From assembly GCA_963810095.1 (NCBI GenBank), contig CAWEMM010000002.1, positions 64,001-128,000 on the forward strand: 64,000 nt of DNA. Direction: 5' to 3'. Positions 678 through 21,902 of this stretch are shown one piece after another. The stretch comes from an uncultured Chloroflexia bacterium. GTDB lineage: Bacteria; Chloroflexota; Anaerolineae; CG2-30-64-16. Under the pieces are notes generated by a model. The model ran no database searches, was not told the DNA's origin, and saw only the letters and a list, made by a program, of their open reading frames with translations. The first letter of the stretch is position 1; each line of letters opens with the position of its first letter. The translations under genes were made by a program, and so were the position numbers.

Positions 678-2576
678 CTACCGGATAGCCAGCCAGGCCA
701 ACAGTGCCACCGCGCCGAACAGCATCGCCAGCGCGTAGAGCCCCACCATGCCGCTCTGCAGGCGGCGCACCTGCGAACCCAGCCAGCCGGTTGCGCCGGC
801 CAGGCCGTTCACCGCACCGTCGATGCCGCCCCGGTCAAAGACCCGGGCCAGCCAGTCGCCGATCGCCCGCAGCGGGTTGACGATGATCATGTTGTAGAGT
901 TCGTCGACGTAGTACTTGCGGTCCACCCACTCGGCCACGGGGCCGAGCGCGGCGCGGAAGCGCTTGGGCAGGCTCGTGTCGACGATGTAGGCGCGGTAAG
1001 CGAGATAGGCGCCGGCAATCGCAATCAAACCTGATACGGCCAACAGGATCAGCTCGACGACGAGGTTCGGATGAACCGCGGGGGCAGCCGCACCCGCGGC
1101 CTCGAAGGCGGGCTCGAGCGCCGGGTCGATGATTGACAGGCTGGGCAGGCCAAGATAACCGGTCAGGAGCGCGCCGGCAGCCAGGAGGATGAGCGGGATG
1201 GTCATCACCCGGGGCGATTCGTGCGCCGAATTGAACAGCTTCTTGTCCCGCTCCTGGCCCCAGAAGGCCATGAAGAGCATGCGGAACGAATAGACGGCGG
1301 TCATAAAGGCGGTGACCGCACCGACGGCCCACAGCGGGATCGAATACTCAAACGCGTTGAAGAGAATGGCGTCCTTGCTGAAGAAGCCGGACAGCAGCGG
1401 GATGCCCGCGAGTGCGCCCACACCCACAACGAAGGTCCAGTAGGTCGTCGGCATCTTGACGCGCAGGTTGCCCATCTTCCGAATATCCAGCTCGCCGTGC
1501 AGGCCGTGCATCACGCTGCCCGCGCCGAGGAACAGCAGGGCCTTGAAGAACGCGTGCGTGACCAGGTGAAAGATGGCGGCCGGATAGGCGCCGACGCCCA
1601 CTGCGATGAACATAAAGCCGAGCTGCGAGACGGTCGAATAGGCCAGGATGCGCTTCATATCGGTTTGCGCGAGGGCAATGGTGGCTGCGATGAACGCAGT
1701 CGCCACGCCGATCCAGGCCACCCAGTTGCCCGTCGTCGGCGCCAATTCGAACAGCGGGGCCGAACGAGCGATCATGTACACGCCGGCGGTCACCATGGTC
1801 GCGGCATGAATCAGGGCGGAAACCGGTGTCGGACCTTCCATGGCGTCGGGGAGCCAGACGTAGAGGGGGATCTGCGCGCTCTTGCCCGTCGCTGCCAACA
1901 GCATGAGCATAGTGGCTGCGACCACCGCGGCGCTGCCCACGGCCCACACTTGCGGCGCTTTCGCAAACACCTCCGTGAACTGCAGCGAGCCAAGCCCCGT
2001 AAAGATAATCATGATAGCGAGCAGCAGGCCGAAGTCGCCGATGCGGTTGACGATAAAGGCTTTCTTGCCTGCGTCCGCCGCGGAGGGCTTTTCGAACCAG
2101 AAACCGATCAGCAGGTATGAGGCCAGGCCCACGCCTTCCCAGCCGACGAACATCAGCAGGTAGTTGTTCGCCAGGATCAGCGTCAACATCATGAGGATGA
2201 AGAGGTTGAGATAGGCGAAGAAGCGCGGGAAGCGCGGATCGTCGTGCATGTAGCCGGTAGAATAGACGTGGATCAGGAAGCCGACGCCCGTGACCACCAG
2301 GGCCATCACAACCGAGAGCTGGTCGATGAGCAGGGCCGCATCGACCTTGAAGTTGCCGACGAGCATCCACTGCCACAGGAAGACCTGGTGCTTGCGCTCT
2401 TCGCCGGGCAGGCTGAACAACTGTACGGCAACCGCGACGGCCACTGCAAAGCTCAGGAAGACCATGGCCGGCGCGATCCAGCCGACCGCCTTGCGCCCCA
2501 GCCGCCTGCCGAAGAGCGAAATGACCAGCGCGCCCAGCGCCGGAAAAACGAGCATCAACCAGGCATAATCAAGCAT
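678..2576 (-). CDS. nuoL: NADH-quinone oxidoreductase subunit L (standard-length lateral helix)
   Basis: 632 aa; GWEGVGLASYLLIGFW, KSAQIPLYVWLPDAMEGPTPVSALIHAATMV, HAFFKALLFL motifs. Confidence 0.97.
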   Translation of the reverse strand: MLDYAWLMLVFPALGALVISLFGRRLGRKAVGWIAPAMVFLSFAVAVAVAVQLFSLPGEERKHQVFLWQWMLVGNFKVDAALLIDQLSVVMALVVTGVGFLIHVYSTGYMHDDPRFPRFFAYLNLFILMMLTLILANNYLLMFVGWEGVGLASYLLIGFWFEKPSAADAGKKAFIVNRIGDFGLLLAIMIIFTGLGSLQFTEVFAKAPQVWAVGSAAVVAATMLMLLAATGKSAQIPLYVWLPDAMEGPTPVSALIHAATMVTAGVYMIARSAPLFELAPTTGNWVAWIGVATAFIAATIALAQTDMKRILAYSTVSQLGFMFIAVGVGAYPAAIFHLVTHAFFKALLFLGAGSVMHGLHGELDIRKMGNLRVKMPTTYWTFVVGVGALAGIPLLSGFFSKDAILFNAFEYSIPLWAVGAVTAFMTAVYSFRMLFMAFWGQERDKKLFNSAHESPRVMTIPLILLAAGALLTGYLGLPSLSIIDPALEPAFEAAGAAAPAVHPNLVVELILLAVSGLIAIAGAYLAYRAYIVDTSLPKRFRAALGPVAEWVDRKYYVDELYNMIIVNPLRAIGDWLARVFDRGGIDGAVNGLAGATGWLGSQVRRLQSGMVGLYALAMLFGAVALLAWLAIR

Positions 2577-5139: not shown

Positions 5140-7876
5140 CTACTCCGACGCCAAGCTGGCGAGTGGTGCGTGGTCGGCCGCTGTCACAGCGGGTGAAAGG
5201 GCTACGGAGACGCTCTCTCCGCGGCCGGCGCCGAGGGTTTCTGCGGGAAGCCCGGGCAACCCGAACGGGATCCAGGCCGTACCCGCCTGCACGGAAGCAT
5301 CGGCGCGCAGCGCAACGCTGACGCTGCCCAGCGCGGAGGTGATCGTCACCTGGCTGCCTTCAGCCAACCGCACTGCAGCGAGGTCACCCGGGTTCAGGGC
5401 CACGAACGGCGCCGGCAGCCGGTCACGCAGCTGGGCTGCGGCGTGCTGCATGAGCGTTCCGCCGTCCCACAGCCACGGACCGCCGGTTAGTGTGAACTGC
5501 CCGGCTGGCGCGGCTGCGACCGGCTGCACGTCGAGCGGCTCGAACCGCCGCGGGGGGCGAACCAGCGCGCTCGCCGGCCATTGCAGGCCCTGATCGGTCA
5601 GGTTCTCCCAACGCAGCGCGCCGTAGACGGGCACGGCCTTGCTGATCTCTTCCAGCACGGCCTGGGCCGTCTGGTAGCTCCACGGCTTCGGCGCGGGCGC
5701 GCCCTTGGCGGCCGTTCGCGCGCGTTTCTTGCGCTTCCAGTCGGGCACACCGTCGGCCGGAGCCTGCGGACAGCGTGCGCCGTGGCCTGCACGGCGATCC
5801 AGCGCTCCGCGAGCAGCGTCATCACGGCCCAGCCGGGCAGGGAGTTCTGGATCGAATCGATGGCGTCGGGCGCGCGCTGCACCCTTCGCTCGAGGTTGGT
5901 ATACGTGCCGTTCGTCTCGGCCCAGGTCGTTGCGGGCAGGACGACGTGCGCCAGTTTCGCGGTCTCGGTGAGGAACAGGTCTTGCACGACGAGAAAGTCG
6001 AGCTGACGCAACGCCTCGGCCGTCTTCGGCGACGCTGCCGGGTCGGCTTCCATTACGAACAGCCCGCGCACGCCGCCGTCCAGCATCTGCTGGTACGTCT
6101 GGCCCGGCTCGGCCGGCGGCTGCACGCCCCACAGCTTGCCCAAGCCGGTCGCGCACGCCGGCCTCGCCCACCGGCAGGTGGCCCGGCAAGCTATCGGCCA
6201 CGACGCCCATGTCGCGCAGGCCCTGCCCGTTCGCCTCGTGCCCGACGTAGGCGAGCTTGTCGCCCGCGCCGAGCAGCACCGCCACGTTACCCAGGGCCGC
6301 CAGGGTTTGCCGGCCGCGCTCGCCCCGGGCCGCGTCGGGCCCGTAGATGAAGAGCGGCGCCTTGGCGGCGAGCAAGGTATCGACCGCCGCGGCGATGTCG
6401 GGCCGTGGCGCGCAGCGTCAGCGCCACCGCGCCCGCGGGCTGAGCCGGCCGGCTCGTCGCGGCGGGCTGGGGTCTAGGTCCGCGGGCCGCGCCCGGCTCG
6501 GGCTTCTGAGCCTGTGCCTGGCTGGCTTTCTTCGTCTGCAGGGCCGCGGCCAGCTCGCTCAACGCCAGTGCTTCGTCGCCGGGCCGGGCTGAGATGAAAA
6601 CGCTGCCGCTCACCCGCGGGTCGTCGACATAGCGTGCCGCCTCGATCTTGCGAGGGTTGATGATGACCAGTTTCGCGCTCTTGCGGCGCACCGCCCGCTT
6701 GATATGCAGATCGAGCACCGGTGCGGCCTCGCTGGGGTCGAACCCTACGAGCACAATCACGTCGCTCTTGGCGATGTCGGCGATGGCGGGCAGCCCGGTT
6801 GGCAGCGCCGCCACCGACGCGCCCTCGGAGAAGTCCACGTTGTTCGTGCCCACGAGGGTGCGGAAGAATTTCTGGAGCAGGTAGCCCGACTCGTTCGAGA
6901 CGCGGCCGGCCGCAATGCCGCCTACGGCGTTGGGCCCCTTCTGTTCTGCGAGCGCTTCAAAGCCTTCGACGACTGCCGCAATCGCTTCCTGCCAGGTGGC
7001 CTCGCGCAGTTGGCCGCCTTGCCGGATCATCGGCGACTTCAGGCGCCCCGGATGGTCCACGTGCTGGTGCAGGAACCGGCCCTTGTCGCAGATCCACTCG
7101 TCGTTGACGGCCATGTTCTCGCGTGCGACGATCCGGCGCAGCGTGTGCACACGTTCGTCAAGCCGTACGTTGCAGCCGACCGGGCAGTGCGTGCAGACAC
7201 TTGGCGTCCGGCGCAGCTCCCACGGCCGGTAGCGGAAACGGGCCACCCGGTTGGTCAGCGCGCCCACGGGGCAGATGTCGATGATGCTGCCCGACGTCTT
7301 CGCATCGACCGGCTTGCCGGGGAACACGTCGATGATCGTCTCGCCCCCGCGCTCGAACAGGCCGATCTGGGGCTTATCTTCCCACTCTTCCAGGTAACGG
7401 ATGCAGCGCCAGCACAGAATGCAGCGCTCCTGGTCCAACATGATCAGGTCGCTGATCGGGTAGTGCTTCTGCTTGCGCCGCTTGACCTCTACGAACTTGC
7501 TCGCGCCGGGACCGTACTCCATCGTATTGTCCTGTAGCGGGCACTCGCCGCCCTTGTCGCAAATGGGGCAGTCGAGCGGGTGATTGATCAGGATGAAGCC
7601 CAGCACGGCTTCGCGCGCCTGCTGGACCTGCTCGCTGTCCGTCCGGACCGCCATCCCCTCGTTGACGCGCACGGTGCAGGCGGTGTCGAGGCGGCTGCCG
7701 CGCGGGCCCGGAAACTCGACCAGGCACATGCGGCACGCACCGAGCGGGTCCAGCTTAGGATGCGAGCAGAAGATCGGGATGTCGACGCCGGCGGCTTTGG
7801 CCGCGTCGATCACCAGCGTCCCTGCCGGGACCTGGACCTTGATGTCATTGATGGTCACGTTGACCAAATCAGCCAT
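5140..7876 (-). CDS. nuoG: NADH-quinone oxidoreductase subunit G (split by about 3 frameshifts)
   Basis: ORF 6287-7876 has CSHP..ACRMC, HPLDCPICDKGGECPLQ, CILCWRCIR, CTHCPVGC..WICDKGR Fe-S motifs; the molybdopterin-oxidoreductase-like C-terminus continues in ORFs 5140-6375 and 5598-6143 (VQDLFLTETAKLAHVVLPA..GTYTNLERRVQ). Confidence 0.92.
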
Positions 7877-7916: not shown

Positions 7917-8318
7917 CTAGTACGGTTGAATCACCTGTAAGCCGGAAACCGGTTCGAAATGACGCACGTTGCGCGTGTACACGACGAGGTCATGTTCGAT
8001 AGCCGTAGCCGCGATGAGGGCGTCCGGTATGGCAAGGCCGTGGCCCAGGAACAGCGCCTCGATGAGACGGTATGCGGTCTGAGATGCCGGGCCACTAACC
8101 GGCAGCACCATCACCTCATTCAGCATCCGTTGAACCTGGCGCAACTCGCCCGTAGCGCGGCATCCCCGGATGAGCTCCATGGCGGAAATGATGCTGATGC
8201 GGACGGCATCGGCAGCATATCGCTCGGTCAGGAACTGCTTTGCTTCTGCGACGCCACGGGCGCTGTCTACCAGGACGTCAGTGTCGATCAGTCCTGCCGG
8301 TCTGAGCGTGTCTCCCAT
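7917..8318 (-). CDS. PIN-domain (VapC-like) toxin
   Basis: LIDTDVLVD, ISAMELIRG, IPDALIAATA, TRNVRHF acidic PIN motifs; start overlaps 3' end of upstream small ORF. Confidence 0.9.
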   Translation of the reverse strand: MGDTLRPAGLIDTDVLVDSARGVAEAKQFLTERYAADAVRISIISAMELIRGCRATGELRQVQRMLNEVMVLPVSGPASQTAYRLIEALFLGHGLAIPDALIAATAIEHDLVVYTRNVRHFEPVSGLQVIQPY

Positions 8319-8548
8319 TTGACTCTTTCCTCGCGAACCCATGCCGCCCCGTCGCGCATATCGGTTCGATCGGCCCACATGCCGAAGAACGCCAGATTTG
8401 AGAACGCCTCGCCGGCTTCGCGCTGAGATCGCTCTGCATCTTCGACCGTTTCGACCCGCACGTAAACCTCAGTGCCGTCCGGATAACCCAGGTTCTTCGG
8501 AAAGATGATGCTCTTGCCTTTGATCTTCCCTCGCTCTATCGCCGTCAT
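8288..8548 (-). CDS. Putative antitoxin partner of the PIN toxin
   Basis: 86 aa; N-terminal beta-rich segment (GKIKGKSIIFP...PDGTEVYVRV) and FFGMWADR tail; overlaps the PIN gene; GGAGAG RBS upstream. Confidence 0.75.
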   Translation of the reverse strand: MTAIERGKIKGKSIIFPKNLGYPDGTEVYVRVETVEDAERSQREAGEAFSNLAFFGMWADRTDMRDGAAWVREERVKWETRSDRQD

Positions 8549-8580: not shown

Positions 8581-10521
8581 TTATCGCTTCACCGTCGGCT
8601 GGTTGAACTTCTCTTCCTGGGGCAGCGCCGGCGACGTCACGCCCGACGGCACGCCGGGATCGGGCCGGTAGACCGGCCGGATCGGGATGACGGGCTGCTG
8701 GTGGGCGCCGGCAATCGCCTGTTCGAACTCGGGCCGGAACTTGGCCAGGTTACTCTGCAGGCCCCAGACCGCCGCGAACGAGAACGGGCAGAAGCTCTTG
8801 CCGGCGATCATATCCGCGATGTAGAGCATCAGCCCGATGTCGTCGGTCTTGCCCTCGCCGCGCTCCACCCGCTCCAGGATATCCTCCAGCCAGCCCGTGC
8901 CCTCGCGACACGGCGTGCACTTGCCGCAGCTCTCTTCCCGGTAGAACGACAAGGTCCGCCGGGCCACTTCCACCATGCTCTGGTTCTTGCCGATGACGAT
9001 GACCGCGGCCGCGCCCAGGCTCGAGCCCTGCTTGGCGACGGCGTCGAAGTCCATCGGCGTATCGATCTGGTTCTCGTCAAGCAACTGCATGGACAGGCCA
9101 CCCGGCACCACCGCCTTCAGGCCCTCGGCCTCATCCGTCAGGCCACCGCCCCACTCGTAAATCAGCTCGCGCAGTGTGACGCCGTGCGGCAGTTCATACA
9201 GGCCGGGCTTCTGCACCTGTCCGCTCACGCAGTAGATGCGGAAGCCGGTGCTGTTGGGGGTGCCCCACTGCTTGTACCAGTCCGCGCCGCTCTTCAGCAC
9301 GTGCGGCACGTTGCTGATGGTCTCGACGTTGTTGACGATGGTCGGCTTGCTGTACAGGCCGGCGACCGCGGGGAAGGGCGGCTTGAGCCGCGGATGGCCG
9401 CGGTAGCCTTCGAGCGAGGTCAACTCCGCGGTCTCTTCGCCGCACTCGTATGCGCCCGCGCCCCGGTGCACCACGATCTTGAGCTTCTTTCCGGTCCCGC
9501 CCGCGCCGCGGTCGGCGAATAGGTTGTCGCCCAGGATGCCGCGGGCCTCGGCCTCCGCGATGGCGCCCATCAGGCGCTCGGCCGCAAAGTAATACTCGCC
9601 GCGCACGTAGATGAACGCGCGCTCGGCCTCGATCGCATAGCACGCCAGGATGATCCCCTCGAGGAGCTGGTGGGGGTCGTATTCCATGATCATGCGGTCT
9701 TTGAACGTGCCCGGCTCGGACTCGTCCGCGTTGACGACCAGGTAGCGGGGGTACACGCCCTGCGGGATGAAGCTCCACTTTTGCCCTGCGGAGAAGCCGG
9801 CGCCGCCGCGCCCGCGCACGTTCGCCGCCTTCATCTCGTCGATGACCTGGGCCGGCGTCTTGCCGCCGCTGAGCACCGCCCGAGCGGTCTCGTAGCCGCC
9901 GTCCTCGAGGTAGGAGTCGAGCGTGTGCGAGTTCGGTTTGTCCACCCGCCCCAGCAGGAAGTTCGTGTCGGGCCGGCCACCATGCCGGTAGGGACCGGTG
10001 GGCCAGCGCTCCGTCGTGTCAAACCCCTGGCCCGAGCCGATCAGCGCCAGCGCCTCGTCCAGCTTTTCGGGCGTGTCCAGTTCCTCGAAGTACCGGATCT
10101 TCTGCGTCTTCTTCTCGGTGCACATGAACATGGGCGCGGTCGCGCAGGCGCCCAGGCATTCGACGTGGCCTAGCGTGAACTTGCCGTCCGGGGTGGTTTC
10201 CCCGAAGGGAATCCCGAGCCGCTCCTCGAGCATCTTCGTGAGCTTGCTCGACCCGCGCAGCATGCACGGGACGTTGTCGCAGACTTCGATCGTGTATTCG
10301 CCCGGCTCGTGATGGACGTTATACATATGGTAGAAGCTGGCGAATTCGCCCACTTCCGCCTCGTCCAGCCCAAAGAGCGCGCCCACCTCGGCCATGACCC
10401 CCGACGGCAGCCAGCCGTTCTCCCGCTGGGCGACGTAAAGTGCCGGCCCCAGCGCGGAGCGGGGAACGGGATAACGGGCCTGAAGCGCCCGGATTTCAGC
10501 AATAGCGTTTTCCGATAGCAC
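8581..10521 (-). CDS. nuoEF: Fused NADH-quinone oxidoreductase subunits E and F
   Basis: N-terminal NuoE (CDNVPC..CLGAC) joined in frame to NuoF (RGRGGAGF, VNADESEPGTFKDR, GAGAYECGEETA, CGKCTPCREG..CPF). Confidence 0.94.
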   Translation of the reverse strand: MLSENAIAEIRALQARYPVPRSALGPALYVAQRENGWLPSGVMAEVGALFGLDEAEVGEFASFYHMYNVHHEPGEYTIEVCDNVPCMLRGSSKLTKMLEERLGIPFGETTPDGKFTLGHVECLGACATAPMFMCTEKKTQKIRYFEELDTPEKLDEALALIGSGQGFDTTERWPTGPYRHGGRPDTNFLLGRVDKPNSHTLDSYLEDGGYETARAVLSGGKTPAQVIDEMKAANVRGRGGAGFSAGQKWSFIPQGVYPRYLVVNADESEPGTFKDRMIMEYDPHQLLEGIILACYAIEAERAFIYVRGEYYFAAERLMGAIAEAEARGILGDNLFADRGAGGTGKKLKIVVHRGAGAYECGEETAELTSLEGYRGHPRLKPPFPAVAGLYSKPTIVNNVETISNVPHVLKSGADWYKQWGTPNSTGFRIYCVSGQVQKPGLYELPHGVTLRELIYEWGGGLTDEAEGLKAVVPGGLSMQLLDENQIDTPMDFDAVAKQGSSLGAAAVIVIGKNQSMVEVARRTLSFYREESCGKCTPCREGTGWLEDILERVERGEGKTDDIGLMLYIADMIAGKSFCPFSFAAVWGLQSNLAKFRPEFEQAIAGAHQQPVIPIRPVYRPDPGVPSGVTSPALPQEEKFNQPTVKR

Positions 10522-10638: not shown

Positions 10639-12450
<1,812 letters not shown>

Positions 12451-12453
12451 GCT

Positions 12454-13041
12454 TTACCTCGCAGCCCCGCGCGGCGCGCCGTTGGCCGGCTCCGCCAGCT
12501 TGACATCCACCGGGCTCGCGACCGGCTCGCGCAGCGGATTCACCGCGTCGATGCGGCTGTACTTGCGATCGCGGAACCGTTCCTTCTGGATCTTCTGCTG
12601 CAGCAGTGTCAGGCCGTACAGCAGCGCCTCGGGCCGCGGCGGGCAGCCGGGGATGTAGACGTCGACCGGCAGGATCTTGTCTACGCCCTGCACGATAGCA
12701 TAATTATTGAAGGGCCCGCCCGCGCTGGCGCAGATGCCCATCGCAATGACCCACTTGGGCTCGAGCATCTGGTCGTAAATGCGCTTGATGACCGGGGCCA
12801 TTTTCTGGCTTACTCGGCCGGAGACAATCAGCAAATCGGCCTGCCGCGGCGAAGCACGGAAAACCTCGGAGCCGAACCGGGCAATATCGAAACGGCTCCC
12901 GCCGGCCGCGATCTGTTCGATCGCACAGCAGGCGAGGCCGAATGTCAGCGGAAAGATGGACCACTTGCGGCCCCAATTGACCGCGTTTTCCAGAGTCGTC
13001 GTAACAAAGCCCTCATCGGGCAGTTTTTCTTCCAGACCCAT
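12454..13041 (-). CDS. nuoB: NADH-quinone oxidoreductase subunit B
   Basis: [33 protein letters not shown] (N2 cluster ligands). Confidence 0.97.
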
Positions 13042-13081
13042 TACTCACACTCCGCCAATGTGGCTGCGCCGAACCCGCACC

Positions 13082-13438
13082 TTACTGCCACTTGAACGCG
13101 TCGTTCTTCCACGCGTAGACAAACCCAACGAGCAGAATCACGACGAAAATCGCCATTTCGATGAGCCCAAACAATCCGAGCTTGCGGGCGGCCACGGCCC
13201 ACGGATACATCAGGATGACCTCGACATCGAACAGGATGAAGAGGACCGCCACCAGGTAGAACTGGACCGGGAAGCGGCGCTGGGCGTCGCCGAAGGGCAG
13301 GATGCCCGACTCGTACGGCTCGTCCTTCGCCGAGTTGCGGCGACGAGGGCCCAATAGAGCCGACACCCCGAGCGCGATGGCGGCAAAGCCAAACGCGACG
13401 ACGACCATGACGAGGATCGGGAGATAGCCTTCTGGCAT
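13082..13438 (-). CDS. nuoA: NADH-quinone oxidoreductase subunit A (copy 1)
   Basis: PYESG, FYLVAVLFILFDVE, YPWA, 3 TM; ATG at 13438 behind GGAG (start may be a few codons earlier). Confidence 0.95.
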   Translation of the reverse strand: MPEGYLPILVMVVVAFGFAAIALGVSALLGPRRRNSAKDEPYESGILPFGDAQRRFPVQFYLVAVLFILFDVEVILMYPWAVAARKLGLFGLIEMAIFVVILLVGFVYAWKNDAFKWQ

Positions 13439-13540
13439 GACGGACTCCGCAAAAATCGGATTGCTCGACAACCACCTCAGCCGGCAGCGCGCGGGTCATG
13501 CCGGCGTCAACGACTCAACCCGGCGGGCGCGCGTTGGCGA

Positions 13541-13904: not shown

Positions 13905-14267
13905 TTGACCGTGCTCTCGCAGTACGCTTTTATCGCCATTTTCGCTGTTATCGCCTTCGCGCTGCCCGTCATTGGCCTCGTCATGTCCTGGCTGATCCGC
14001 CCCAAAAAGCCCAATCCCGCAAAGAACGCTACTTACGAATGCGGCATGGAAACCATCGGCGACACCTGGGTCCAGTTTAAGGCGCAGTATTATCTTTACG
14101 CGCTCGTCTTTGTCGTCTTTGACGTCGAAGCGATTTTCGTCTTTCCCTGGGCGGTTGCCTACAACAAGCTCGGGTTGTACGCGCTGGTGGAGATGGTGCT
14201 CTTCGTCGCGATTCTGCTTGGCGGCCTGCTCTATGCGTGGCAGAAGAAAGCGCTGGAGTGGCATTGA
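13905..14267 (+). CDS. nuoA: NADH-quinone oxidoreductase subunit A (copy 2)
   Basis: AAGGAGG RBS; [32 protein letters not shown]. Confidence 0.95.
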
Positions 14268-14268
14268 T

Positions 14269-15451
14269 ATGAACTACATCCTGGACTTCTTTGTGAATCT
14301 CGGCAATTCGTGGACGGCCTGGCTGAGCACGTTTCTGCCTGCCTGGGGCGTGACCGCGGTCAACTATCTGCTCGTGGGCATCATCCTGGTGATGATGCCG
14401 GTGATTGCGACCCTCACACTGACGTGGATGGAGCGCAAGGTTATCGGCCGGATTCAGAACCGGATTGGACCCAACCGCGTGGGCCCGTGGGGCATCTTCC
14501 AGGCCATCGCCGACGCGGTCAAGATGCTCGATTAAGGAAGACATCGTACCCTCCGGGGCCGATCGTCCCGTGTTCAACCTGTCGCCTATCCTGATCGCCG
14601 GCGCGGCCGCGCTGCTCTGGGCCGTCATCCCGTTCGGCAAGGGCATGATCGGGCAGGACTTGAACGTGGGCGTGCTCTACCTGGTCGCCATCGGCTCGAT
14701 CACGACCGTTTCAGTCGTGATGGCAGGCTGGGCGTCCAACAACAAGTTCGCGCTGATCGGTGCATTCCGCGTCGTGGCGCAACTGCTGAGCTACGAAGTG
14801 CCGATGATCCTGTCGATCGCCACCGTCGTGCTGTTAGCCGGCACAATGAGCACGATGGGCATCGTGGAGGCGCAGCAAGTGCCCTTCATCTTCGTCCTGC
14901 CCATGGCCGCCCTCGCGTACTTCGTCGCCGGCTCGGCCGAGGTGGGCCGCGCGCCCTTCGATTTGCTCGAAGCGGACTCGGAAATCGTCGCGGGCTATTT
15001 CATCGAGTACAGCGGCCTCAAGTTCGGCTGGTTCTACATCGCCGAGTACGGCAACCTCTTCGCGATCTCGGCCATCACGGCCACCCTGTTCCTGGGCGGT
15101 TGGCGTGGCCCCTTCGCCCACGAGGCGCCGGTGCTGGGTCCCGTTTACTTCATTCTGAAAACCTTGCTGGTCGTCTTCCTGCTCATGTGGATTCGCGGCA
15201 CGTGGCCCCGGTTCCGCATCGACCAGATGCTGGCGTTTGCCTGGAAGGTTCTCGTGCCCGCGTCCCTGGCGAACCTGCTCTGGGTGGCAATCGTCCTGAA
15301 GCTGCCCGTGCCGACGTTCGCGCAGTGGGTCCTGGTGTTAGGCGGCAACCTGATCATTCTGGCCGTGGCTGCAACCATGCTCGGCCGGGCCGCCAGGCGT
15401 TACGCTGACCAGCACAAAGTCGCCACCGCATCTGCGGCGGCGTCTGCCTGA
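14269..15451 (+). CDS. nuoH: NADH-quinone oxidoreductase subunit H (copy 2; frameshift near 14530)
   Basis: ATG 14269 gives [28 protein letters not shown]; continues in another frame as [41 protein letters not shown]. Confidence 0.93.
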
Positions 15452-15602
15452 CATTCCGTACAGCAGCGCGGCGCCCACCCAGGCCTGCGCGGGCGCGAGT
15501 CGTTGACCACGCTAGCCTTTGCCTGCGCTGCTGTGTCTCTTGACCGCCTATTCCGCCAATCCGTCGCTGAACGGGAACGCACTCATGCAAGGGGTTGCAG
15601 CC

Positions 15603-16094
15603 ATGCAACAGGTCATGTTCTTTGTCCTCAGCGCAGTTACGCTGATCTCCGGTGCCCTGGTGGTCACCACGCGCAGCCTCTTCCGCTCCGCGCTCTGGCT
15701 CGTCCTGGCCTTCTTCGGCATCGCGGGGCTGTTCATCCTCCTCAACGCCGAGTTTCTGGCCGTTGCGCAGGTGCTCATCTACGTTGGCGCAATCTCGACC
15801 CTGATCATTTTCGCGATCATGCTGAGCCGCGGCGTCATGGACCCCGACGCCCGGCGCTTCAACAGCCAGTGGGGGCTCGTCGCGGGCTTCGGCGCAGTGT
15901 TCTTCGTGCTCCTGGCCGCCATCCTCACCCGCGTGCAGTGGCCCATCACGATGGGTGCGGTGCCCCCCGATGCCATCCAGCAGCTGGGTTCTGACTTCGT
16001 GGGGCCTTTTGTGGTCCCCTTCGAAGTGGCGTCGGTATTACTCGTCGTCGCCATGATTGGCGCCATCATCATCGCGCGTGAGCGGGAGAACTAG
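15603..16094 (+). CDS. nuoJ: NADH-quinone oxidoreductase subunit J (copy 2)
   Basis: [42 protein letters not shown]. Confidence 0.94.
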
Positions 16095-16095
16095 C

Positions 16096-16419
16096 ATGGT
16101 TCCACTCACCTGGTACCTCCTTGTTGCGGCCGCGCTGTTCTGCATCGGTGCGTTCGGCGCGCTCGCCCGGCGCAATGCCGTGGCCGTCCTGATGGGCATC
16201 GAGCTGATGCTCAACGCGGTCAACATTAACCTGGTTGCCTTCTGGCGCTATGTCAGCGCGGGGGCGAGCGCGGCCGCGAACATGACGGGGCAGTTGTTCG
16301 CCATCTTCGTCATCACCGTTGCGGCGGCAGAAGCTGCGGTTGGCCTGGCGCTGATCATCGCGATCTACCGCCAACGCAGCACCGTCGTCGTCGAAGACAT
16401 CGACACGATGAAGGGATAG
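16096..16419 (+). CDS. nuoK: NADH-quinone oxidoreductase subunit K (copy 2)
   Basis: [22 protein letters not shown]. Confidence 0.95.
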
Positions 16420-16423
16420 CGGC

Positions 16424-18722
16424 ATGAGCGAAGCCACCACCTACCCGGCCGTCTTCAACCTGACGCCGATCATCCCGTTCCTGCCGCTCGCGGCCTTCGT
16501 GCTCATCGTGCTCTGGGCCAATCGCAGCAAGAAGCTCAGCGCCGCACTCGCGATTGCAGGCATCGCGCTCTCCTGGGTCATTAGTTGGGCGGTTGCCTTC
16601 ACCACCTTCGGGATGGAGCGGTTCGGCGAGAACCCCGTCACATTCGTCGCGCAACTGGCTGCCCACGGGCTCGACCTGGCAGGCGTTCGGCTTCCGGGTC
16701 GATCCGCTTTCTGCCGCCATGCTCTTCATGGTTCCGTTCGTTTGCTTCCTTATTTTTGTGTACGCAGTCGGCTACATGGGTGTGGGCAAAGAGGAGAGCG
16801 CAATTGAGGCCGGTGGGCACGACGAGCGCGGCAAGCCGGCCGAGCCCGGCCATGTCGACCGCCTCGCCAGTCGCTTCTTCGCCTACATCGCCCTCTTCGC
16901 ATCGGGCATGCTCGGCTTTGTCCTCTCCGACAACTGGGTCATGGCGTTCATCTTTTGGGAACTCATGGGCCTTTGCTCGTACCTCCTGATTGGCTTCTGG
17001 TTCGCCCGCAAGTATCCGAACCCGAAACAGATTACGCCCAAGGAGGCCGGGCTGAAGGCTTTCCTGACCACCCGGGTCGGCGACACGATCATGCTGGTCG
17101 GGTTCCTGATCCTCTTCGGCATCACCGGCTCGATCACGTTCTCTCAGATCCTGTCGCCCCAGACGCTGGAGCAGCTGACGACCCTGACGTTCAACCTGCC
17201 GGTCTTCGGCCCGGTCCCGGCGGCGACCGTCATCGCGATCCTGATCTTCTTCGGCGCCATCGGTAAGAGCGCCCAATTCCCCCTGCACGTCTGGCTGCCC
17301 GACGCGATGGAGGGCCCGACGCCCGTTTCCGCCCTGATCCACGCGGCCACCATGGTGTCGGCGGGCGTGTACCTGATCATTCGCCTCTTCCCGCTCATGG
17401 CGGCCGTGGAGCACGGCGGGGCGCTGCGCTTCATCGGCTTCATCGGCTCGTTCACCGCGCTGTTTGCGGCCACGATCGCCGTGGCGCAGAACGACATCAA
17501 GAAGGTGCTGGCGTACTCCACCATTTCCCAGCTCGGGTTTATGTTTGCCGCACTTGGCATCGGCGCGTACGTCGCCGCGACCTTCCACCTGCTGATGCAC
17601 GCCTTCTTCAAGGCCCTGCTGTTCCTCGGCTCGGGCAGCGTGATTCACGGCATGGAGCATGGACACCACGAGGCCGCGCACGTTCACACCCCCGCGGTGG
17701 CGCACGCGGACGAAGTGAGCAGCATCGCTCGTGACTCGCACACGGCGGAGACCAGCCCGCGCGAGGAGCACGGCTTCGATCCGCAGGACATGCGCAACAT
17801 GGGCGGCCTGTTCCGACGGATGCCCCGCACGGCCTGGACCTTCATTATCGGCGGCCTGGCGCTCAGTGGATTCCCGCTTGTGACTGCGGGCTTCTGGAGC
17901 AAGGACGAAATCCTGGCGGATGCTTGGTACAACCAGCACCACGTGGTCTTCTTCGTGCTGGCCCTGGCCGCGCTGCTCACCGCGTTCTACACCGGGCGCC
18001 AGATCATGATGACGTTCTTCGGCAAGCCGCGCACCGAGGCCGCGATGCACGCCTCGGAGCACGACAGCATCTTTGCCTGGATGACCATTCCGCTCATGGT
18101 GCTGGCCGTCTTCGCCGTTGTTGCGGGTTGGGTGGGTATCCCGACCACCTTCCCGGCGCTGGGCGCCCTGTCCACCAATCCCTTCCACGAATACATTGGC
18201 GGCCTCGCCGAGGCGCTCCACGTGGAGGCCGCGGAACTGCCGTTTACACCCGTGCCGCTCGTGACGTCGATGATTGTGGCGCTGGGCGGCCTGCTGCTCG
18301 GCTACCTGGTGTACCGGGGCTACGCGGCGAGGGCGCAGAGCGAGACCCGTGACCCGCTCTCCCGGCCGCTCGGCGGGCTGTACCGTGTGCTGCAGAACAA
18401 GTACTACGTGGACGAGCTTTATTACAAGGTGTTCGTGCGGGGCACTCAGCGGCTGTCCAACTGGCTCTTCAAGTTCGACGATGCGTGGGTAATCGACCCG
18501 ATCGTCGACGGGGTGGGCAAGGTGGGCCGGCGGCTTTCAGAGGCGGGTCACTGGTTCGATGTGCACGTCGTGGACGCCATCGTGAACGGCATCGGCAAGG
18601 CGGCCGACGCCTTCGGCGGCGCCCTGCGAGCCCTGCAAACCGGCCGGGCGCAGAACTACCTGTTTACGATCCTGGTCGTGTTGTCGGTAGCGCTGGGCTT
18701 GTACCTGCTGCTGCCCAAGTGA
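16424..18722 (+). CDS. nuoL: NADH-quinone oxidoreductase subunit L (copy 2; extended lateral helix; frameshift near 16650)
   Basis: ORFs 16424-16807 and 16554-18722 join; WELMGLCSYLLIGFW, KSAQFPLHVWLPDAMEGPTPVSALIHAATMV; His-rich loop; duplicated FD..VID.IVDG/VNG segment near the C-terminus. Confidence 0.94.
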
Positions 18723-18779: not shown

Positions 18780-20366
18780 TTGATGAATAACCTGCTGCTG
18801 ACCATTATTACCTTCGTCCCGCTTGTCGGCGCCATCCTCGTGCTGCTGCCGTGGGGTAGATGGTTCAGGCTAGACAAGGCGCGCGAGGAAAGGCTGATCA
18901 AGACGGGCGCGATCGCGATCAGCACGCTGCCCTTGGGCCTCGCGATCATGCTGTGGTTCGCCTACGATCGGGCGGCCGGCGGCATGCAGTTCCAGGCGAT
19001 GGTGCCGTGGATTCCGGCGATCAACGTGAGCTTCCACGTCGGCGTGGATGGCTTGAGCGTCCCGTTTATCTTTCTGACGACGTTCCTGACCACCCTCGGC
19101 CTGTGGTACTCGGCGCGCACGATCAAGGTGCGCGTGCGGGAATTCTTCTTCCTTTTCCTGCTGCTCGAAATGGGCATGTTGGGCGTCTTCATCTCGCTCG
19201 ACCTCGTGCTCTTCTACGTGTTCTGGGAGATCGGCCTCGTCCCGATGTACTTCCTGATCGGCATCTGGGGGCAGGCGAAGGACCGGCCGCAGTATTCGGC
19301 GATCAAGTTCTTCCTCTATACCATGGCCGGTTCGGTCTTCATGCTGCTGGCAATCCTGGCGATCTACTTTGCCACCGGCAGCTTCGACCTCCTCGTGGCG
19401 CAACGGGTGCATCCCTACGCGAATAATGCCCTGTTATCCGGCTTGTTTTTCTTCGCCTTCTTCCTGGCGTTTGCGATCAAGGTCCCGAGTTGGCCGTTCC
19501 ACACCTGGCTGCCCGACGCGCACACTGCCGCGCCCACCGCTGGCTCTGTCATCCTGGCCGGCATCCTGTTGAAGCTTGGCGCGTACGGCATCATCCGCAT
19601 CGCGCTGCCGGTCTTTCCGACCGCGGCCAACCGGTTCGCCGTGGTGCTCGTCGCGCTCGGCGTGATCTCAATCATCTACGGCGCGCTCGTGTCGATGGCC
19701 CAATGGGATCTAAAACGCCTGATCGCGTACTCTTCTGTGAGCCACATGGGGTACATCCTGCTCGGTGTGGGCGCGGCTGCCTACATGTTCGGGCGGCCCG
19801 AGTATATCGATGCGGGCGCGATGGCGCTGAGCGGCGCCACCTTGCAGATGTTTACGCACGGGCTCAGCACCGGCGCCTTGTTCTTCCTCGTCGGCGTGAT
19901 CTACGAACGCTCGCACGTGCGTGACTTGAAAATGTTCGGCGGCCTGAGCAGCAAGCTCCCGTACTACTACGGCCTTTTCGCTCTCGCAGCCTTCACATCG
20001 CTCGGGCTGCCCGGCCTGGCCGGCTTCTGGAGCGAGCTCTTCGTCTTCCGAGGCGTGTTCGCGGTGCCGGCGCTGGCCATCTGGGCGGTGATCGGCGTGA
20101 TCGGCATCGTCCTGACCGCGGCGTACATCCTCTGGAAGATCGTGCAGTACACCTTCCTGGGCCAGTATGATCCGCACAAGATCGCGCACTGGACCGACGT
20201 GGAGACCGGCGCCGAGCTGCACGAGCCCAAGGACATGGCGCTGTTCGAGAAGATCACGCTGTGGCCCCTGGCGATCTTTATGATCCTCTTCGGCGTGGCC
20301 CCGGCCCTGATCCTGACGTTCTTCAACGGAACGTTCACGACCTTCATGACCTCGCTCGCCAGGTGA
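18780..20366 (+). CDS. nuoM: NADH-quinone oxidoreductase subunit M (copy 2)
   Basis: GVDGLS, FYVFWEIGLVPMYFLIGIWG, IKVPSWPFHTWLPDAH, LIAYSSVSHMG. Confidence 0.96.
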   Translation: MMNNLLLTIITFVPLVGAILVLLPWGRWFRLDKAREERLIKTGAIAISTLPLGLAIMLWFAYDRAAGGMQFQAMVPWIPAINVSFHVGVDGLSVPFIFLTTFLTTLGLWYSARTIKVRVREFFFLFLLLEMGMLGVFISLDLVLFYVFWEIGLVPMYFLIGIWGQAKDRPQYSAIKFFLYTMAGSVFMLLAILAIYFATGSFDLLVAQRVHPYANNALLSGLFFFAFFLAFAIKVPSWPFHTWLPDAHTAAPTAGSVILAGILLKLGAYGIIRIALPVFPTAANRFAVVLVALGVISIIYGALVSMAQWDLKRLIAYSSVSHMGYILLGVGAAAYMFGRPEYIDAGAMALSGATLQMFTHGLSTGALFFLVGVIYERSHVRDLKMFGGLSSKLPYYYGLFALAAFTSLGLPGLAGFWSELFVFRGVFAVPALAIWAVIGVIGIVLTAAYILWKIVQYTFLGQYDPHKIAHWTDVETGAELHEPKDMALFEKITLWPLAIFMILFGVAPALILTFFNGTFTTFMTSLAR

Positions 20367-20390: not shown

Positions 20391-21902
20391 TTGAAACTCT
20401 CTGACATTACCTACCTGCTGCCCGAGCTGGTGCTCCTCGTGGGCGCGGCGTTGGTCTTCCTGCTCGACATCCTTTGGCTGCGCCCCAAGATGTCTGGCGA
20501 CCCGAGATCGCAGGACCGGCGTTTCTCCTGGCTGCCCGGCATCGCAATTGTCGTGTTGCTCGTGGCGGCGGTGGCCATTATTCCCAGCCAGGCGCGTCCG
20601 GCCACCATCGTGGCGACGATGCTCACGATCGACGGGTTTGCCCTGTTCTTCAAGGCGCTGGCGCTCATGGGCGTTGGCCTCGTGATCCTGACCGCGATGC
20701 CCTATCTCAAGGGCCGCACGCCGTTCGGCGGCGAGTTCTACGCGCTCCTGCTGATCACCGCACTGGCGATTTGCCTGGCCGTTTCCGCCAACAACCTGAT
20801 CATGATCTACCTGGCGATGGAGTTCCTCAGCATAACGAGCTACGTGCTGGCGGGCTACCTGCGCAACGATCGGAAGTCGGGCGAGGCGGCGCTGAAGTAC
20901 TTCCTCTACGGCGCGACTGCGTCGGGTGTGATGCTCTACGGCATGTCGCTGCTCTATGGCGCGACGGGCACCACCGTGCTGTCGGAATTGGCGCAGGTTC
21001 TCTCGGCCCGGCCACAAGGCGACCTGGTGTATCTGATCGTGCCCGCCATCGTCATGCTGCTGGCCGGTTTCGGCTTCAAGGCCAGCCTGGTGCCCTTCCA
21101 TCAGTGGGCGCCCGATACGTACGAAGGTGCGCCAACGCCCATCACCGCGTTCCTTTCGACCGCTTCCAAGGCCACCGGGTTCGCGATCCTGATGCGGGTT
21201 TTCGTCACTGCGTTTGGGTTCCTGCCGGTTGCAGGGCAGTGGGTCACCATCCTGGTCGGGATTTCGGTCCTGACGATGACCCTCGGCAACCTGACCGCCC
21301 TGCGGCAGACCAATATCAAACGGCTGCTGGCCTACTCGTCTATCGCACAGGCCGGCTACATGCTGATTGGCGTCGCGGCCGTGGCCGTTACGCCCGGACT
21401 GACTTTCAACGGCATCAACGGCGTGCTCCTCTACCTGTTCGCCTACCTGTTCACCAATCTGGGTGCGTTCGCGGTGGTCATCGCCATCGAGACCAGCACG
21501 GGCAAGGTCGAGCTGAAGGACTACAGCGGGATGGTGCGCCGCTCGCCGTGGTTGGCCGTGCTCCTGGCCATCTTCCTGTTGTCGCTCGCGGGCATTCCGC
21601 CCACGGGCGGCTTCCTGGGTAAGCTCTACGTGTTTGGTGCGGCCGTGTACCGGGAGATGTGGGTGCTTCTGGCCATTGCAGCGATCAACACCGTCATCGC
21701 GGCGTTTTACTACCTGAATATCGTCCGTTACATGTTCTTCGTGCCCAGCGAAGAGCCTGTCGAACGCGTCCCCGTCGCGCCGGCCTTCGGGGCCGTCCTG
21801 GCGATCACTGCCACTGTGACCCTGGCGCTCGGCATCGTGCCGGGGCCGTTCATTGCGTGGGCGTCAGTCTCGGCACGCTCCCTGCTATCCGTACTTAGGT
21901 AG
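20391..21902 (+). CDS. nuoN: NADH-quinone oxidoreductase subunit N
   Basis: EAALKYFLYG, FKASLVPFHQWAPDTYEGAP, KRLLAYSSIAQAGY, SLAGIPPTGGFLGK. Confidence 0.96.
   Translation: MKLSDITYLLPELVLLVGAALVFLLDILWLRPKMSGDPRSQDRRFSWLPGIAIVVLLVAAVAIIPSQARPATIVATMLTIDGFALFFKALALMGVGLVILTAMPYLKGRTPFGGEFYALLLITALAICLAVSANNLIMIYLAMEFLSITSYVLAGYLRNDRKSGEAALKYFLYGATASGVMLYGMSLLYGATGTTVLSELAQVLSARPQGDLVYLIVPAIVMLLAGFGFKASLVPFHQWAPDTYEGAPTPITAFLSTASKATGFAILMRVFVTAFGFLPVAGQWVTILVGISVLTMTLGNLTALRQTNIKRLLAYSSIAQAGYMLIGVAAVAVTPGLTFNGINGVLLYLFAYLFTNLGAFAVVIAIETSTGKVELKDYSGMVRRSPWLAVLLAIFLLSLAGIPPTGGFLGKLYVFGAAVYREMWVLLAIAAINTVIAAFYYLNIVRYMFFVPSEEPVERVPVAPAFGAVLAITATVTLALGIVPGPFIAWASVSARSLLSVLR

Follow-up and report, generated by a model that had tools for sequence, protein, structure and literature searches.

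We describe a stretch of 64,000 nucleotides (hereafter the window) from an uncultured Chloroflexia bacterium (assembly GCA_963810095.1, contig CAWEMM010000002.1, positions 64,001 to 128,000), and in it the gene nuoL2, which encodes the antiporter-like subunit NuoL of a complex I. The lateral helix (HL), or strap, of NuoL2 is lengthened by 26 residues, as in the complex I variants with two NuoM subunits (2M), and nuoL2 stands beside a single nuoM (1M), nuoM2. We found that nuoL2 encodes, in intact form, the NuoL of a second complex I, which lacks nuoEFG genes of its own, and that a long-strap NuoL beside a single nuoM is an old, fixed state of the family to which the bacterium belongs, common in many other bacteria, and not a decaying 2M complex. 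The reading that we favour, with a probability of roughly 0.4, is that two copies of NuoM2 lie side by side beneath the extra strap.

The presence of a fourth pump in 2M complexes is argued structurally mainly from the lengthened NuoL strap. As the same strap commonly stands beside one nuoM, two possibilities remain: many bacteria would make four-pump enzymes from three pump genes, which would change the estimates of their H+/e- yield, or the number of pumps cannot be read reliably from the strap length. For the window alone the result is modest, i.e. an intact, ordinary member of a widespread, poorly understood enzyme class located beside a standard complex I.

The strap of NuoL2 and its single nuoM

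The window carries two complex I operons arranged head to head, operon 1 on the minus strand and operon 2 on the plus strand. Operon 2 comprises membrane subunits only, in the order nuoA2-H2-J2-K2-L2-M2-N2, every gene being named by NCBIfam, as follows:

13905–14267, plus strand: nuoA2, first gene of operon 2 (NF005839 NuoA, E 5.8e-44; 149.3 bits, below the 163-bit cut-off of the model)
14269–15451, plus strand: nuoH2, in two frames (NuoH match for 14537–15448)
15585–16094, plus strand: nuoJ2 (NF005163 NuoJ, E 7.8e-38)
16096–16419, plus strand: nuoK2 (NF004322 NuoK, 139 bits; cut-off 128)
16424–18722, plus strand: nuoL2 (NF005141 NuoL and TIGR01974; about 765 amino acids once an extra base is omitted)
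18399–18644, plus strand: lateral helix HL of NuoL2, from KYYVDELY to LQTG, 82 codons
18477–18554, plus strand: extra 26-residue unit, a gap in NuoL1 in the alignment (boundaries arbitrary, as in any tandem repeat)
18645–18719, plus strand: transmembrane helix 16 (TM16), the anchor helix closing the strap (helix 657–677 in the AlphaFold2 model)
18780–20366, plus strand: nuoM2, sole nuoM of operon 2 (TIGR01972, 516.5 bits; cut-off 263.8; profile positions 1–482 of 486)
20391–21902, plus strand: nuoN2 (TIGR01770, 413 bits; cut-off 332.6)

A 680-residue fragment of NuoL2 passed the cut-offs of both NuoL models (564.3 bits versus 556 for NF005141; 551.5 bits versus 407.5 for TIGR01974). From the KYYVDELY motif to the LQ[ST]G motif, a hand count on the translations gave 56 residues in NuoL1, the NuoL of operon 1, versus 82 in NuoL2, and the coordinates and counts of an earlier note made from the sequence alone are correct. 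In an alignment of 21 C-termini, NuoL1 shows a single gap of 26–27 columns relative to every NuoL2-type sequence. The same note had regarded the extra 26 residues as a duplication of a unit written FD..(V/I)D..V(D/N)G, and two findings bear this out. First, in HMMER alignments the single strap unit of the solved NdhF protein (6hum_F, residues 596–603) aligns to two successive places in NuoL2. Second, the two strap units of NuoL2 can be aligned to one another (local BLOSUM62 score, 45). From these alignments we conclude that the insert repeats the FD..(I/V)D..VNG unit in tandem.

The insert is amphipathic (hydrophobic moment of 0.6–0.75, dipping at each FD motif) and, in keeping with the earlier note, it is predicted to form a continuous helix and not a loop. 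Using a 57-row alignment, AlphaFold2 modelled the NuoL2 strap as one 77-residue helix (residues 576–652 of the 680-residue fragment) followed by TM16, with a mean predicted local distance difference test score (pLDDT) of 86.8 and 10-residue-block means of 63–85 in the strap. The control NuoL1, modelled with a 42-row alignment, has one 51-residue helix (556–606). The modelled straps differ by exactly 26 residues, i.e. about 39 Å at 1.5 Å per residue, which would correspond roughly to the width of one antiporter-like subunit. A single-unit strap of about 51 residues, the trait of standard three-pump complexes, is present in NuoL1 and absent from NuoL2. Elsewhere in NuoL2, a His-rich loop (window about 17697–17768, plus strand; fragment residues 340–363, pLDDT <50) has no counterpart in NuoL1; at this site the sequencing-run contigs of related organisms carry 13–34 other letters in place of about 130–160 bases.

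In the family, the NuoL2 tail is 107 codons long in 17 of 17 sequences (16 loci and the window), with no insertion or deletion, and the pooled ratio of nonsynonymous to synonymous substitution rates (dN/dS) is about 0.24 in the insert, 0.15 and 0.29 in the flanking parts of the strap and 0.18 in TM16. Both the constant length and the low dN/dS value indicate that the insert is kept by purifying selection.

The earlier note had also reported a single nuoM between nuoL2 and nuoN2, and the profile matches confirm that there is exactly one, nuoM2. Counted over the whole genome, including the DNA just left of the window, the nuoM genes are nuoM1 (of operon 1) and nuoM2 only. Indeed, tblastn searches with the L, M and N proteins against the genome of the window (G000, a 6.1-Mb, 16-contig assembly with contigs named C2, C6 and C8) returned L1, M1, N1, L2, M2, N2, two Mrp-type genes (C8) and one weak match on C6, which is a divergent orphan PF00361 protein (C6:380410–381807). 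No third nuoM was found in G000 (whole genome, tblastn) or in its chromosome-level relative G041.

This state is shared by the relatives. NuoL2 orthologs occur in 40 of the 41 genomes searched and in all 24 family genomes. Among five family genomes that are 97–99% complete, four carry two NuoM-class genes and no more, one in each operon, and the fifth has a third full nuoL-nuoM-nuoN (L-M-N) set. We fetched 19 relative loci, 14 from the family and five from other families of the class. Twelve of the 14 family loci are L-M-N with one M, and the remaining two are cut off by the contig edge behind their first M; the five others comprise two L-M-N and three L-M-M-N loci (L036, L038 and L039). The strap span is 82 residues in 16 of these loci and 83 in one; of the remaining two, L039 has 82 and the other was missed by the motif pattern and has the same 107-residue tail. 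In two genomes, G018 (L029:1650–6982) and G017 (L030:6212–9882), 4–5 kb of accessory genes separate nuoL2 from nuoM2. These gaps were considered as the site of a hidden M and rejected, as they contain beta-helix/NosD-like, HEPN, HNH endonuclease, DUF3800 and TumE toxin genes.

In the window, nuoL2 is split over two frames, the first one covering about 74 codons from the ATG at 16424. The contigs of all three public runs that cover the site (X1, X2 and X3) omit one base at 16646/16647, and the break is therefore an assembly error. The restored gene has about 765 codons; most full-length orthologs have open frames of 755–776 codons (16 of the 19 full-length rows), and those outside this range have 708, 798, 805 and 895. 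The break in nuoH2 is due to one extra base near 14529, which is absent from the orthologs of G007 and G005. In addition, nuoM2 differs from the run contigs by a compensating +1/−1 pair at 19488–19493, nuoG1 of operon 1 lies in two overlapping frames (window 5140–6375 and 6287–7876, minus strand; probably another one-base assembly error), and mrpA and mrpD are also split in this assembly. We read all these breaks as assembly indel noise and not as decay. The X3 contig spans the L2-M2 junction with no difference from the window, and the run contigs listed all stop short of the nuoH2 site near 14529 and of the M2-N2 junction. The best matching runs hold 0.23–0.28 of the sampled words, as Logan contigs, the depth of which is not readable as copy number; they include no RNA run.

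These data bear on the possibility that the locus is decaying or mis-assembled, i.e. a 2M operon that is being lost, a pseudogenised operon or an operon with a collapsed second nuoM. The two frameshifts of the window (nuoH2 and nuoL2) speak for it, whereas the correction of the nuoL2 frame by three of three runs, the relatives lacking the extra nuoH2 base, the other split genes of the assembly, the unchanged L2-M2 junction, the purifying selection on the insert and the one-M order of all 12 family assemblies that reach nuoN speak against it. We give this possibility hardly any credence, and a collapsed second nuoM, which the earlier note had envisaged, does not fit the 12 concordant assemblies.

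Long straps in other bacteria and the order of events

The species-representative genomes scanned with the C-terminal alignment yielded 80 loci, and all the loci fetched amount to 99, distributed as follows:

Long strap, L-M-N: 42 loci (of 99)
Long strap, L-M-M-N: 26 loci (of 99)
Long strap, cut or broken: 20 loci (of 99)
Standard strap, all L-M-N: 6 loci (of 99)
Third strap unit: 2 loci (of 99)
Motif not found: 3 loci (of 99)

The number of M genes could be scored in 68 of the 88 long-strap loci, and it is one in 42 of these 68. Chloroflexota and at least 11 other named phyla contribute to the 42 long-strap L-M-N loci, and none of the six short-strap loci has two M. The insert shows column-by-column homology to that of the NuoL of L-M-M-N operons of the same class, and the gene layout is that of Chloroflexi 2M complexes. 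The view of the long helix as a 2M-type signature is not supported, since most of the scorable long-strap loci have one M. In three Acidobacteriota loci a long-strap nuoL-nuoM pair was observed, with no other nuo gene within about 20 kb in L086 and L096, and with the locus running off the contig end in L098. The two loci with a third strap unit, L066 (1573–3771) and L068, encode a NuoL whose tail has 132 residues; L066, with the gene order L-M-M-A-B-CD, has one strap module more than 2M relatives.

We also performed whole-genome PF00361 censuses on five chromosome-level records (G041–G045). G041, an Anaerolineales chromosome of the M clade of the window, has two L-M-N sets and the orphan only, with no Mrp genes. 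G042, G043 and G044 have two L-M-N sets each and no spare M, G042 having in addition an Mrp-type pair. G045 (Vicinamibacterales) has a single L-M-N set with a long strap, together with an Mrp pair, and only one nuoM and one nuoN genome-wide. Hence, a long strap does not require a second nuoM anywhere in the genome.

The censuses weigh on the proposal, made in the earlier note, of a hybrid complex in which NuoM1 of the divergent operon 1 would fill the fourth slot in trans. It is true that the operons are head to head here and in most relatives with enough upstream DNA, with oppositely oriented nuoA/nuoB genes beside nuoA2 in L021, L023–L026, L028, L030, L031, L034 and L049, and that a second L-M-N set occurs in four chromosome-level genomes (G041–G044). 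However, NuoM1 cannot be the general answer, since G045 combines a long strap with a single nuoM; furthermore, NuoM1 belongs to a distant M clade and its own NuoL has a standard strap. We consider this hybrid improbable. Still less probable, in our opinion, is the recruitment of another trans-encoded antiporter-like protein, either the orphan PF00361 protein, which exists in both G000 and the closed relative G041, or MrpD, which has no gene in G041. As a candidate M, the orphan was rejected because its distribution does not follow the one-M state: of 41 relatives 36 have it, among them the 2M genomes G033 and G036 as well as G026, for which there was no NuoL2 match. The region of the orphan (C6:378008–381811; L042:9–3811) contains two adjacent, very divergent antiporter-like genes beside genes for HMG-CoA reductase and synthase; one of the two has a PF00361 match (E 1.3e-20) and is kept in 36 of 41 relatives, and the other resembles NuoM only faintly.

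In an M tree (FastTree, 107 rows, eight near-duplicate family rows left out), NuoM2 falls in a 17-row clade of M proteins from one-M Chloroflexota loci, far from the clade of NuoM1. The sister group of the NuoM2 clade (support 100) is formed by the L-proximal M of 2M loci (27 rows). Their second M is found in a clade apart (24 rows), located beside the M of a standard-strap Syntrophomonas operon.

A tree of concatenated NuoH, NuoL and NuoN (43 rows, 1558 columns) was built from the loci that have all three genes, L066 and L072 being among those left out, with FastTree and a short IQ-TREE LG+G4 search. In Chloroflexota, the 1M loci (15 rows) and the 2M loci (20 rows; SH-aLRT 99 for this clade) form two sister clades, and the outgroup, eight rows from Bacillota and five other phyla, is 1M throughout, always with a long strap. 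A single change in the number of M genes is enough on this tree. Rooted by this outgroup, the tree is explained more simply by a second M acquired on the 2M stem than by three or more losses; one M with a long strap is thus the likelier ancestral state, and in Chloroflexota the strap probably predates the second M. This phylogeny, along with the one-M state fixed in the family and the selection that keeps the insert, does not support the suggestion in the earlier note of a 2M complex caught mid-loss. One 2M locus, L090, lies on a contig labelled as a Pleurocapsa (cyanobacterial) metagenome-assembled genome (MAG), and its Chloroflexota-type 2M operon is nested in the Chloroflexota clade, possibly through a binning error.

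What lies beneath the extra strap

We propose that two copies of NuoM2 lie beneath the extra strap for the following reasons. First, the insert has the modelled width of one subunit and repeats a docking-like unit. Second, a long strap with one M is a stable combination, whereas a short strap with two M was not seen among the six short-strap loci. Third, in the Chloroflexota clade the two strap units stay more alike where there is one M, with a median local score of 36.5 in 1M (n = 16) versus 27 in 2M (n = 23), a weak trend. According to this proposal, the long strap would have arisen before the second nuoM gene; the arm would consist of four pump modules, with the NuoM2 polypeptide at two adjacent positions between NuoL2 and NuoN2; and the enzyme of operon 2 would translocate one more proton per cycle than the standard enzyme of operon 1. 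More tentatively, we would generalise it as follows: one nuoM gene could supply two neighbouring pumps, so that three antiporter genes would make a four-pump arm translocating about 5 H+ per 2 e-, and this homotypic state, widespread in bacteria, could be ancestral to the 2M complex, which would have appeared after a different M took one of the two places.

Several points weigh against the double use of NuoM2. Double use of one antiporter gene product is not known from any complex I-type enzyme. AlphaFold2 working on a lone chain draws a straight helix whatever lies beneath. The similarity of the strap units is confounded by descent and has exceptions, such as the 1M locus L062 (score of 19) and the 2M locus L118 (score of 64). 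The long-strap query enriched the sample, so that its proportions are not population frequencies. The trees were built with FastTree and a short IQ-TREE run, and the outgroup that we chose determines their root. In L066, the first M falls inside the 1M clade, yet a second M is present. Lastly, the second M of the Chloroflexota 2M operons is no recent copy of the first but forms an old clade of its own, which fits the recruitment of a foreign M better than the duplication of an M already used twice.

The principal alternative is a three-pump arm (L2, M2 and N2) with a surplus strap module, which would extend beyond NuoN across NuoK/J/A, bulge out, or accommodate lipid or an unrelated small subunit, with no extra proton pumped. 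This arm needs no unprecedented stoichiometry, and it agrees with the common and stable occurrence of one-M long-strap operons as well as with the third strap unit of L066 and L068. On the other hand, the insert duplicates precisely the unit of which standard straps have one, keeps its motif, is amphipathic and is modelled as straight. In solved structures, the peripheral arm leaves little room on the cytoplasmic side beyond NuoN, which also counts against a strap reaching there. A further objection comes from L118, an Anaerolineae MAG in which the stretch from nuoEF to nuoN (L118:7370–12500, as far as its 14.3-kb contig extends) is the closest relative of operon 1 of the window. In the NuoL tree, L118 is the nearest relative of NuoL1, with a doubled strap and two nuoM. 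Its strap unit was recently doubled, and so was its nuoM, in tandem, the two copies being each other's closest relatives; strap and nuoM can thus double jointly and recently. On balance, the three-pump arm is a serious possibility, which we nevertheless hold to be less probable than the double use of NuoM2.

Genomic setting and comparison with known systems

The nearest named relatives of the genome of the window are uncultured Anaerolineales/Anaerolineae (Chloroflexota). Its full complex I set, operon 1, extends past the left edge of the window, with the following features:

From about 13.4 kb to past the left window edge, minus strand: operon 1, with nuoB, fused nuoCD, fused nuoEF, a vapC-like gene, nuoG, nuoH, nuoI, nuoJ, nuoK and nuoL1
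Near 13085–13426, minus strand: nuoA1 homologue, 46% identical to NuoA2
10639–12450, minus strand: fused nuoCD, a single 603-residue frame
8581–10521, minus strand: fused nuoEF, a single 646-residue frame
7917–8378, minus strand: gene of a VapC-like PIN toxin (NF047959, E 6.4e-11), between fused nuoEF and nuoG
678–2576, minus strand: nuoL1, with a standard strap of 56 residues, in the divergent operon that runs from nuoB to nuoN
C2:63070–64677, just left of the window: nuoM1
C2:61606–62919, just left of the window: nuoN1

The 152-residue open reading frame of the nuoA1 region (13041–13499) gave no family match in the profile scan, and nuoJ1 and nuoK1 are named by position alone, the nuoJ frame being devoid of an NCBIfam match and the nuoK frame having been left unscanned. 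The Q-module genes of the second complex I (a second nuoB, a second fused nuoCD and the gene of a 392-residue NuoI-like ferredoxin) are clustered on another contig (G000 C6:1556.4–1560 kb).

The 2M complex I is described as having a second nuoM and an HL lengthened by about 26 residues (PMC9040806, PMC6606698, PMC7117926 and PMC8004040, citing Chadwick, Hemp, Fischer and Orphan 2018, ISME J 12:2668). Operon 2 resembles it in the 26 extra residues of its NuoL and in the absence of nuoEFG from the cluster, and differs from it in having one nuoM, with no spare copy in the genome, so that the defining second NuoM is lacking. A mismatch between strap and nuoM number has been remarked on once in print, in passing, for the canonical complexes of 'Ca. 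Manganitrophaceae' (Nitrospirota), whose Complex_I_1 and Complex_I_2 are reported to have no extra pump subunit and yet a NuoL with the HL insertion; the authors leave undecided whether these complexes accept an extra pump or represent a transitional state (Yu et al. 2022, mBio, PMC9040806). The mismatch is the same as in operon 2, and in our sample it is common across at least 12 phyla. Besides this remark, our literature search returned no discussion of one-M long straps and no solved structure of a 2M or long-strap complex.

With regard to solved three-pump complexes, NuoL2 has the same core fold as the NuoL of Paracoccus (8qby_L), Thermosynechococcus (6hum_F), E. coli (7p64_L) and Thermus (4he8_F), the Foldseek matches of its model having E values of 1e-29 to 1e-24 and 32–40% identity to the solved chains. 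The strap of NuoL2 is 26 residues longer than theirs, whereas that of NuoL1 is standard. The root-mean-square deviation of the full-length superpositions is 12–13 Å, versus 5–6 Å for the two shortest-aligned of the top 50 chains (622 and 603 columns). No solved chain with a doubled strap unit was found by sequence search or among the 50 Foldseek matches listed.

Chloroflexus aggregans is reported to have a 2M cluster (nuoABCDHJKLMMN) beside a full 14-gene set (PMC8004040). The genome of the window similarly has a second, nuoEFG-less complex I set besides a full one, whereas the C. aggregans cluster differs from operon 2 in having two nuoM and in keeping nuoBCD in the operon. The Chloroflexi 2M layout, as described, is nuoL-M-M-N with nuoBCDI apart and nuoCD fused (PMC7117926), and operon 2 (nuoB, fused nuoCD and nuoI apart; no nuoEFG) has this very layout minus one nuoM. 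The insert of NuoL2 occupies the same alignment columns as that of the NuoL of the L-M-M-N operons of its class-mates (L036, L038 and L039), and in the trees the lineage of NuoL2 and NuoM2 is the nearest sister of the Anaerolineae 2M subunits.

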